Shown here piece by piece: positions 6,001 to 9,000 of a stretch of 45,248 nucleotides of DNA (within the stretch, counting starts at the first letter, position 1; each line of letters begins with the position of its first letter). This DNA is from a virus. Its lineage: Duplodnaviria; Heunggongvirae; Uroviricota; Caudoviricetes. Location of the stretch: IMG/VR virus record IMGVR_UViG_2529293151_000014; one strand, written 5' to 3'. The position numbers are program-made.

Positions 6001-9000
6001 TGCTTATCACGCCATTGTTCTGACGTAGCAACTGTAAGGTTTGCAAATGCCGTTCCTGATGGTGAATATCTGATTTCTGGATCATGCCCAAGGCGACCAA
6101 TAATGATCACCTTATTTACGCCTCTGCTTGCCATTTATGCCGCCTGTTTTAGCTCGTTAACTCTGATGTTCATTACCTGAACGCATTTAGCCTGCGCCTC
6201 CTCGTTTCCAGCCATTAATTGCCAGTCACGCTGATAACGCTCGATGAGTTTTTTCTTGTCAGTTTCTGTTGACGCATAATCGCTGAAGTCTTTCAGGATT
6301 TGTTCGCAGTCAACCGATGGAGATTTCTGGTTGGTATTTTCTGGTGATGGTTTGTTATCTGATGCTGGGATTGCCCATCCCGGCAGTGATGGAGGGAGCC
6401 AGTAAAATCCTGTTCCATCCTTCAGTTTTGCCCTGTGCCACCCATGCTTTTTATCGAGAGATGTTTGTGCGAAACCTTCCTCAAGGTTATACAGATACCG
6501 ACCGATTCCCCACTGAACGGCAGCACGCTTCATTGCACCTGAACGACCACCTTTGACGGCTTCTACCTGCGTGTTTTCAGCAGCATCCCATTTGGTTACC
6601 CATTCGGAATCAATCCTGATTGATATGCCGCATTCAACGCCGCCGTTGTTGGGAATATCGCGGTATTCATTGCGCCATCCTGCTTTGCCGCAAACATCGT
6701 CCAGGCGTTTCATGATTGCCCTATTCGTGACATAAGCCAGCACCATAGCCCACACTTTTCCATCGCGTGTTTTACCGCTTTGCTGTATTCGCCATTCGAT
6801 ATCTTCAGGGCTGAATGGCTCATCGAATTTATTCAAATCCATAATTCACCTCAGAATGGACATGGCCCAAGGAAATAACGCTGGTTTAATACTTCGACTC
6901 TGGACAAATTAAGGCATACCCGCATTCCTTCGCGGTCACCATTATGGCGATACCAGAGAGCTTTCTGCGTGTACATGCGTCTCTGTAACTTGCTCTCCTT
7001 CACTGTGGTTGCAAGTGACATGAATATCTCCTTCGTTACCGATTAATTCTTTCATCTGACGAATGAATTCTTCGTCTGACCAGTTATCTGTAAAACTCAT
7101 TTCCTGCGATACCACGGAAGGTTGATAGCTGATTTCATAGCTTTATTTGCTTCAAGCCACATTTTTGAATCACCAATAAATCTGGCTATTACTGCTTTGT
7201 TCTGTGCAGCACGAAGCATCTGGTGATTAATGGCTATTTCATTGCGCATAACGCCTCCAGTTGTTTCTTTGCTGCTCTGATTAATTGTTTAACTCGGCGT
7301 GATAATTCAGATTCGTGCGGGTAGAAAGCGGACATGACGCCGCTACCCGCGAGCTGAAAGTGCATCATGGGTAACTCCTTATATTTGATTGCATAACGAA
7401 AACGCCTAGAGTGAAGCGTTATTGGTATGCGGTAAAGCCGCGCTTAGGCGGCTGATGTTTCTTCTTTCAGGCTTTCGAGATATTTACGTGGGTCGTCGTA
7501 ACATTGGCATTCGCTGTACCAATCCACCCAGCGATCAGTAAGCCCCATCTCTGATAAATCTTCATCGGTAAGGCTCTCATCCCACATCTCAAGGCCGTTA
7601 GCATTGCAGTAATCAGGCTTGATGTTGTTGTCATACTGAAAGGCGTCATAATCAGCCAGTGCGTCCATCAGGCGAACACCCTCTTCAACACTTGCCACTT
7701 CTGCAATGAACGGTTTCATAGGTACTTGCGGGATATGCCAGACACGTAATTTCATATTTCCTCCGTCAAAAAAATTGCCCTCACACTGGAGGGCAAAGAA
7801 GATTTCCAATAATCAGAACAAGTCGGCTCCTGTTTAGTTACGAGCGACATTGCTCCGTGTATTCACTCGTTGGAATGAATACACAGTGCAGTATTTATTC
7901 TGTTGTTTATGCTAAAAATAAAGGCCACCATCAGGCAGCCTTGTTATTCTGTTTACCAAGTTCTCTGGCAATCATTGCCGTCGTTCGTATTGCCCATTTA
8001 TCGACATATTTCCCATCCTCCATTACAGGAAACATTTCTTCAGGCTTAACCATGCATTCCGATTGCAGCTTGCATCCATTGCATCGCTTGAATTGTCCAC
8101 ACCATTGATTTTTATCAATAGTCGTAGTCATACGGATAGTCCTGGTATTGTTCCATCACATCCTGAGGATGCTCTTCGAACTCTTCAAAATCTTCTTCCA
8201 TATCTCACCTCAAATAAGTGGTTTGCTGCCTAATTTCATTTTCTGGCGACCAACACAAGTCACACCCATTTCACTGCGTGGCTTGCGGTAGTAAATACGA
8301 TTCTGTTTACTCTCGACTTCTTCTGCCTTCTTGCAGCGAAGGCTTCCGAGTGATGCTGCTTTATCTGCTCTGACGCAACCAGAGAGCTTTAGCGCAATTT
8401 TTCGCGCCAGTCGCTGCTCTTGCATTGCCTGTTCACGTTGAGCCTGTCTGCGTGCTCTGCGGCGATTTCTGGCGTTATCGTCAGCCAGATATGTAATGAC
8501 TACTGTCATGTTGACCTCCGGGAAGGTACACATCCTTGTGTGTCGATGATTATTTGTTTTTGCGTTCCCACATCCAGTCATCTACTTCAGACCAGATAGT
8601 GAAACCGAAGCAGATGGCGAATGTGGTAACTAAACCACCGAGAATTGGGTTGGTCATGATGTCTAACATTTTCTGTTCCTCAGATGATTAGCTTTTGTGG
8701 TGTGGTAGGTGGGAGACCCATTTCGACCCGCTTCGTCCGACTTCAATTCGGCAATAGTCCCGCAGGCCTCGCCGCTTTACGTGCGACATATTCCCGTCCA
8801 TGAACCCTTCACCCCACCCCAAAGCCAACTACTCTTTGGTTCCCGCATTTCGGCGGGACAATCCCATCAATGTTAAAGAGCCTGCCAATCTGTTCCGTTT
8901 GGCTTCCAGCGTCCTGCTGATGGCTTAAATTTAAGATCTCTTTAATTAATGGTCAAGAGTATTTTTGAAGAAAACTTAAATTTTCTTTCGTAACTTAAGT

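Follow-up and report, generated by a model that had tools for sequence, protein, structure and literature searches.

The stretch of DNA analyzed here, referred to below as the window, comprises 45,248 nt of a tailed virus (Caudoviricetes; IMG/VR record IMGVR_UViG_2529293151_000014, an E. coli-type prophage contig), and the region of interest on its minus strand, between the antitermination site nutL and the antitermination gene N, is the early-left leader of a lambdoid prophage. The favored explanation, to which we assign a probability of about 0.72, is that a standard lambda-type N leader is followed by a small membrane-protein gene of the family PHROG 7482, inserted between this leader and N. 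Overall, the region joins a known leader to an uncharacterized PHROG 7482 gene in a known type of insertion slot and is in this sense ordinary. A sequence-only reading of the same DNA had called the leader unexplained, but it matches the known lambda-type N leader, and the noncoding part thus needs no new explanation, being a member of a known textbook kind; the suggestion of a regulatory leader controlling N translation fits the noncoding part in that known form, and not as a new feature. The features concerned are as follows, in window positions.

8882-8841, minus strand: nutL, base for base the nutL annotated in phage HK620
8881-8873, minus strand: boxA of nutL, GCTCTTTAA
8858-8841, minus strand: boxB hairpin of nutL
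~8828-8688, minus strand: GC-rich stretch
8828-8810, minus strand: 5' arm of the leader helix, TTGGCTTTGGGGTGgGGTG, GT-rich and boxC-like, assigned from the lambda flank and helix statistics
8809-8708 (102 nt), minus strand: variable interior of the leader element, the 933W allele, assigned from its identity to phage 933W
8707-8688, minus strand: 3' arm of the leader helix, TACCACACC-A-CaAAAGCTAA, with the bulged A at 8698
8681-8677, minus strand: Shine-Dalgarno sequence GAGGA of the small open reading frame (ORF), 7 nt ahead of its ATG, read from the sequence
8669-8550, minus strand: gene for the predicted 39-aa small membrane protein (PHROG 7482), peptide MLDIMTNPILGGLVTTFAICFGFTIWSEVDDWMWERKNK
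8549-8510, minus strand: 40-nt spacer between the small ORF and N
8543-8528, minus strand: short hairpin ACACA-CAAGGA-TGTGT, between the stop codon of the small ORF and the Shine-Dalgarno sequence of N
8519-8515, minus strand: Shine-Dalgarno sequence GGAGG of N, with CGGAGGTCAACATG identical in HK620 and CUS-3
8509-8210, minus strand: N antitermination protein of the HK620/CUS-3 type, 99 aa, matching phrog_271

The window carries the same parts as the lambda N leader, in the same order on the transcript of the early left promoter PL. In lambda, GGCTTTGGGGTGTGTG is followed after ~90 nt by CACACACCACCAAAGCTAAC and then by TGACAGGAGAATCCAGATG with the N ribosome-binding site, while in the window TTGGCTTTGGGGTGGGGTG is followed after 102 nt by TACCACACCACAAAAGCTAATC and then by ATCTGAGGAACAGAAAATG. 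The arms are nearly identical (GGCTTTGGGGTGTG and CACACCACCAAAGCTAA), with GGCTTTGGGGTG.G and CACACCAC.AAAGCTAA common to both phages, and the pairing read for the window sets TTGGCTTTGG plus GGTGTGGTG against CACCACACC, a bulged A, and CCAAAGCTAA. A bulged purine is likewise present in lambda, as is a similarly short 5' untranslated region (UTR) after the helix, the distance from helix to first ATG being 17 to 23 nt in basic leaders and 26 nt in the window. The element was therefore assigned to the lambda type on its position between nutL and the first ribosome-binding site, its long-range helix, and the homology of its arms, all of which were observed. Judged from sequence, the window leader is the counterpart of the lambda N leader, with a ~20-bp helix carrying one bulged purine around a variable interior. 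Unlike in lambda, the interior is the unrelated 933W allele, the helix carries two mismatches, and the first cistron encodes the predicted 39-aa membrane protein rather than N.

The spacing of the parts agrees with this assignment. From the end of boxB to the ATG of N, we measured 158 nt in lambda, 156 nt in P22 (gene 24), 165 nt in 933W, and 108 nt in HK620, and in the window 172 nt to the 39-aa ORF and 332 nt to N. Since lambda, P22, and 933W have 156 to 165 nt before N, the 172-nt leader of the window is of normal length, and the only extra DNA relative to the lambda-type layout is the ORF cassette of ~160 nt. The sequence-only reading was thus right about a gap of ~330 nt, while its premise that N follows nutL closely in lambda and P22 was mistaken. 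Its placement of nutL holds, given the identity to the annotated site of HK620, and so does its start of N at 8509, as the protein matches phrog_271 (E = 1e-36, profile search) and the DNA of the N region is 97.7 to 97.9% identical to that of CUS-3, Gally, and IME10 (97.9% for CUS-3). The 39-aa ORF, with the peptide given, was recovered in the ORF list, and the GC-rich noncoding stretch was confirmed, with a GC content of 0.57 to 0.59 over 8700-8850 versus 0.31 to 0.45 in most neighboring 100-nt intervals.

The closest relative of the leader itself is found in 933W and other Stx phages. The 129 nt at window positions 8813-8685, running from nutL to the ribosome-binding site, are 94.6% identical to 933W positions 9459-9587, which lie between the 933W nutL and the N ribosome-binding site. 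In 933W, the leader runs directly into a 933W-type N, whereas the window has an HK620-type nutL, the small ORF, and an HK620-type N; because the 933W-type leader sits between the HK620-type nutL and the small ORF with its HK620-type N, the join is mosaic. The 933W-type leader, including its interior, occurs in ~500 of 5,426 complete Escherichia coli genomes at 80 to 99% identity.

Support for the leader also comes from its closing helix. Leaders were sampled at 240 loci taken from a viral contig collection via three N families (the HK620/window, 933W, and P22-like AR0058 types), to which lambda, phage 21, HK620, CUS-3, 933W, and four E. coli prophages were added. The helix was present in 246 of the sampled leaders, as 46 distinct arm pairs of 19 to 21 bp, and P22 also carries it. 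Over the 46 distinct arm pairs, 789 of 828 pairs (95.3%) were canonical, and sliding the 3' partner by 1 to 3 nt reduced this to 35 to 48%. At the variable positions, 93.6% of pairs were canonical, whereas shuffling the 3' arms among sequences gave 72% on average and 77% at most. A single helix position can show up to six different pair types, whole stems are swapped between leaders (GGTGACGTG/CGCGTCACC, GATTGGATG/CATCCAATC, GATTTGATG/CATCAAATC, GGTGAATGCAG/CTGTATTCACC, and GTTGCAGATAG/CTATCTGCAAC), and in the outer part of the helix TGAAC/GTTCA alternates with ATGG/CCAT and GTGGT/GCCAC. Because canonical pairing is kept by compensatory changes across the 46 arm pairs, the helix is a real and widely conserved RNA structure. 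The lambda N-leader helix, with its boxC arm, bulge, and 3' arm, is hence conserved across the sampled N families, among them those of lambda, P22, phage 21, HK620, and 933W.

The other part of the favored explanation is the small ORF. The length of 39 codons is not significant by itself, as 52 ORFs of at least 25 aa lie within 3.5 kb, and the ORF was accepted as real because of its conservation, not because of its existence. All 39 residues of the peptide align with the PHROG 7482 profile (E = 8e-25; profile positions 1-39 of 46), and the peptide sequence places the small ORF as a genuine gene and a member of this catalogued phage family. The family includes gp86 of Shigella phage Sf18, annotated "putative membrane protein" (E = 1.6e-29), and an Avunavirus protein (E = 6.6e-24), and its kin in virulent Mooglevirus and Avunavirus phages are proteins of 45 to 46 aa. 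These share with the window peptide the N-terminal motif ML(D/E)I..NPIL.G, a single hydrophobic transmembrane segment, and the acidic motif SE(V/I).D; they differ from it in sequence (34 to 38% identity), in length (45 to 46 versus 39 aa), and in lying in early-gene clusters rather than in an N leader, their annotated neighbors being hypothetical or membrane proteins with no N gene among them. Two main alleles differ by nine synonymous and eight nonsynonymous changes (pN/pS, 0.22), the replacements being conservative and within the hydrophobic core, and no amino acid difference falls in the NPILGG motif or the C-terminal FTIWSEVDDWMWERKNK. Each allele has a Shine-Dalgarno sequence, GAGGA in the window and GGAG at a similar spacing in the divergent allele. 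Residues 9-25 are hydrophobic (mean Kyte-Doolittle value, 2.04), with a similar prediction for the relatives, and lysine and arginine are confined to the C-terminal tail; the gene would thus encode a single-pass membrane protein, predicted to be N-out and C-in.

The peptide is widespread in the same position. The assembly collection lists the exact sequence in 1,264 blocks, and it occurs on ~800 contigs and in 31 of the 5,426 complete E. coli genomes. At each of the 10 places read, 40 nt separate it from the downstream N, with three repressor/Cro types and four N lengths among its neighbors. Among loci sampled by their N, the small ORF accompanies 9 of 80 of the HK620 type, 3 of 80 of the P22-like type, and 0 of 80 of the 933W type. 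In addition, a 69%-identical homologue (P0030) occupies the same slot of a divergent lambdoid contig, with cI, PL, nutL, and the helix before it and an N-like gene after it. A search of 1.84 billion representatives gave only seven matches, showing how narrow the reach of a single sequence is. The 90%-identity cluster that holds the peptide (P0007-P0021) has a 101-aa N protein as representative and mostly N proteins as members, a clustering artifact that could mislead automated annotation. A TrbC match to the peptide (E = 0.064) was rejected as far below the cutoff.

The cassette, consisting of the Shine-Dalgarno sequence, the 39-codon gene, and the short hairpin, takes up ~160 nt directly after the helix, and the motif AATCATC is found at both of its ends. 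As the small gene occupies the usual place of N in lambda, P22, 933W, and HK620, it is the first cistron of the PL transcript. Its 5' UTR, AAAGCTAATCATCTGAGGAACAGAAAATG, is closely related to those before N in lambda (AAAGCTAACTGACAGGAGAATCCAGATG) and HK620 (AAAGTCAATCATCGGAGGTCAACATG), and in the P22-like background it resembles the 5' UTR of P22 gene 24. The shape of the spacer hairpin is kept in relatives with different stems (ACACA/TGTGT, TGCAC/GTGCA, GACACACA/TGTGTGTC, and GCAC/GTGC), the sites compared being window 8528-8543, L265:2706-2721, and L017 ~1340-1360; the terminator scan detects this hairpin on the plus strand.

Extra DNA between the nutL/helix part and N is also found in collinear phages, with contents unrelated to those of the window. 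A CUS-3-type cassette ("bsq5" boundary) sits at the same insertion point in L003:1210-1510 and also in L021, L023, L034, and others; it places ~205 nt before the Shine-Dalgarno sequence of N, exists in two sequence variants, and contains a AGGAGGATTT-ATG-TGA mini-ORF, a start-stop only, and a CCCCG...CGGGG hairpin. In phage mEp235, a Nun-like transcription termination factor and N are both annotated downstream of nutL. The presence of the CUS-3 cassette and the mEp235 nun in the same slot indicates that the slot is an insertion point for accessory genes ("morons"). Another, GC-rich insert of ~250 nt separates boxB from the helix 5' arm in L037, L029, L033, L035, and L059, where no Rfam match was found, and the leader therefore has at least three independent insertion points.

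Some results weigh against the favored explanation. The whole window element folds no better than dinucleotide-shuffled sequence (z = +0.06), and covariation within the 933W-type interior could draw on 18 variants, nearly all with single substitutions, which is too little diversity. The window helix falls short of the consensus in strength (duplex energy, -21.4 versus -31.1 kcal/mol) because of a T>G mismatch in the 5' arm, which L007 and L012 share, and a unique C>A at 8696, where the window has A (minus strand, CCACAAAAG) and all 245 related leaders have C. On the side of the peptide, the NCBI annotation pipeline (PGAP) annotates the small ORF in 0 of the 31 E. coli genomes that carry it, the ORF is absent from all 50,697 isolated-phage records, Pfam and NCBIfam give no credible match, and PHROG 7482 is itself annotated "unknown function." The A at 8696, which removes a G-C pair adjoining the helix bulge, is also the only difference from the window's own IMG/VR record (L025, with C) in 2,697 bases compared.

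Given the lambda-type leader, a mechanism can be sketched from lambda. Kameyama in 1991 and Wilson in 1997 and 2002 reportedly found that RNase III cuts the base of the lambda stem and removes nutL from the N message. By homology with lambda, the helix arms at 8828-8810 and 8707-8688 would form an RNase III target, and the cut would detach nutL, together with the N/Nus complex bound to it, from the ribosome-binding site further downstream, which would relieve N-mediated translational repression. In lambda, nutL lies ~200 bp upstream of N, the RNA between them is highly structured, and N together with Nus factors represses N translation (PMC5725501), while RNase III is a positive regulator of the N mRNA (PMC9032294, PMC8708148). 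Lambda nut sites consist of boxA, boxB, and boxC (PMC2724277), and in the rRNA (rrn) operons boxC sits in the 5' strand of the leader-trailer helix cut by RNase III (PMC10250234, PMC8632103); by analogy, the GT-rich 5' strand of the window helix is the counterpart of the boxC of the lambda and rrn literature (PMC2724277). The peptide would be made from PL at once on infection or derepression, independently of N. Any control that depends on nutL and RNase III would fall on the cistron of the peptide, and N, which starts 40 nt on behind a strong Shine-Dalgarno sequence of its own, may partly escape that control. As a side effect, the cassette would shift the N ribosome-binding site ~160 nt from its regulated position, and if it does alter N autoregulation, the window would hold a natural variant of a textbook circuit.

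The peptide most likely acts in trans, as an immediate-early inner-membrane accessory (moron) protein. The "small membrane effector" of the sequence-only reading is accordingly the best-supported account of the ORF, in view of the conserved family, purifying selection, hydrophobic segment, and basic C-terminal tail, while the function itself is a guess; from position and physicochemistry, we would guess at host takeover or superinfection exclusion. The small protein is a concrete candidate that would be the first product from PL on induction, and should it serve in exclusion or host takeover, it would lend itself readily to study.

The alternative that survives best is that the small ORF is mainly a cis-acting upstream ORF, whose translation, not product, sets the level of N, which it could do by keeping nutL-bound N/Nus away from the N ribosome-binding site, by unmasking the N Shine-Dalgarno sequence, or by shielding the leader from Rho. 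Divergent backgrounds show the ORF bound to the place immediately before N, with a fixed spacer of ~40 nt and a conserved hairpin, and the site repressed in lambda is the first ribosome-binding site behind the helix (PMC5725501). Moreover, the predicted fold allows the N Shine-Dalgarno sequence to pair, through GAGGU, with an ACCUU a short way upstream, but this pairing is not kept in the AR0058 or L265 alleles. The purifying selection on the amino acid sequence also speaks against a role in cis alone, as do the N- and C-terminal motifs conserved in virulent-phage homologues without an annotated neighboring N, and the small ORF is missing from 71 of 80 loci whose N is of the same type. Since the sequence, and not just the frame, is conserved, and since the virulent relatives have no annotated neighboring N, the trans-acting role was ranked first; a mainly cis-acting ORF is unlikely, and a cis effect secondary to the product is possible. 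A leader-peptide attenuator was set aside, as the minus strand has no terminator between the ORF and N and the hairpin at 8543-8528 lacks a U tract.

Other alternatives concern the interior of the leader. The sequence-only reading had noted local hairpin potential here, which was not borne out, since both the whole element and the interior alone (z = +1.02) fold like dinucleotide shuffles and the apparent potential therefore reflects base composition; structural support is confined to the closing helix. The interiors differ wholly between phages, with at least ten unrelated types and an arm-to-arm span of 62 to 222 nt. A broader view would take the helix as a conserved frame for swappable RNAs excised by RNase III, and the slot behind it as privileged for immediate-early accessory genes; we regard this as quite unlikely, and if it were true, the 933W-type interior and the peptide would be unrecognized early effectors rather than a spacer and a passenger. 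In its narrower form, which is more doubtful still, the interior at 8809-8708 would be cargo, a stable small RNA freed by RNase III cuts in both arms in the manner of 16S rRNA. The unrelated interiors in one helix frame, one of them tRNA shaped, would suit such cargo, as would the wide distribution of the 933W-type leader in E. coli. The layout of boxA, boxC, and helix also parallels the rrn operons, in which a GT-rich 5' strand comes after boxA and joins a distant 3' strand in a long helix around looped-out RNA (PMC10250234, PMC8632103); unlike the rrn helix, which encloses 16S rRNA, that of the window encloses ~100 nt of variable RNA and precedes an mRNA ribosome-binding site. Against cargo stand the stability of the interiors, which does not exceed that of shuffles and reaches a z of about -2 in only one of the nine types tested, the shortest interiors (41 nt, in HK620), which look like mere spacers, and the want of usable covariation within the 933W type. 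Permissive Rfam scans of the window region and ten related loci gave no match to any leader type, the sole real match being the lambda cIII thermoregulator, elsewhere in phage 21. In the literature, the prophage small RNAs AgvB, AsxR, and the Pas RNAs map near Q/PR' or elsewhere, none of them in the N leader.

A type I toxin-like membrane poison, silenced by antisense RNA or by a structured 5' leader, is very improbable: the short hydrophobic peptide, charged tail, and long structured 5' UTR do resemble type I toxin mRNAs, but the promoter scan found no promoter-like site on the plus strand within 8150-9100, no Rfam toxin or antitoxin family was matched, the gene lies in a lytic operon repressed in lysogens, homologues occur in virulent phages, and the supposed 5' UTR amounts to the generic N leader, which phages without the small ORF also carry, so that the "toxin-like peptide" of the sequence-only reading is unsupported. 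An equally slight chance was given to a tRNA-like RNase P-type processing signal, in which an acceptor-like stem is followed by R-CCA: all leader types end in stem-R-CCA-AAAG and one allele (L017, L184, and L253) forms a true cloverleaf, but every fold has a continuous ~20-bp helix in which the CC of "CCA" is joined to the GG of TTTGG and R is the bulge, the window reads CAA instead of CCA, a search with ARAGORN gave no tRNA for the window, 933W, HK620, phage 21, or CUS-3, and the homologous lambda leader is under RNase III control (PMC9032294). As the CC is paired within a helix homologous to that of lambda, the idea was dropped. The cloverleaf interior occurs in some P22-like prophages (L017:1101-1182, from E. 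coli AR_0058; L184 and L185:632-713; and L253:792-873) and is called tRNA-Pro by ARAGORN and tRNA-OTHER by PGAP. Its D and T arms are canonical, its anticodon arm is extended, and the inner part of the leader helix serves as its acceptor stem; it is found with and without the small ORF.

The mechanical ORF list extends N upstream to 123 aa (8581-8210), overlapping the end of the small ORF; this form was rejected, since homologues and the GGAGG at 8519-8515 place the start of N at 8509. Promoter and terminator scans of the minus strand found no internal promoter in the cassette and no terminator between the small ORF and N. Upstream of nutL, the following features complete the region.

9697-9047, minus strand: cI-like repressor gene, from the ORF list
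9048-9025, minus strand: intrinsic terminator 3' of the cI-like gene and upstream of PL, from the terminator scan, with terminators annotated at the same position in phage 21 and HK620
8956-8928, minus strand: promoter PL (TTGACC, 17-nt spacer, TAAATT), aligning with PL as annotated in phage 21 and HK620

PL is the sole sigma-70-like site found by the promoter scan on the minus strand within 8150-9100, and from alignment to the lambda ATCAGCAGG start its +1 position would lie near 8921.

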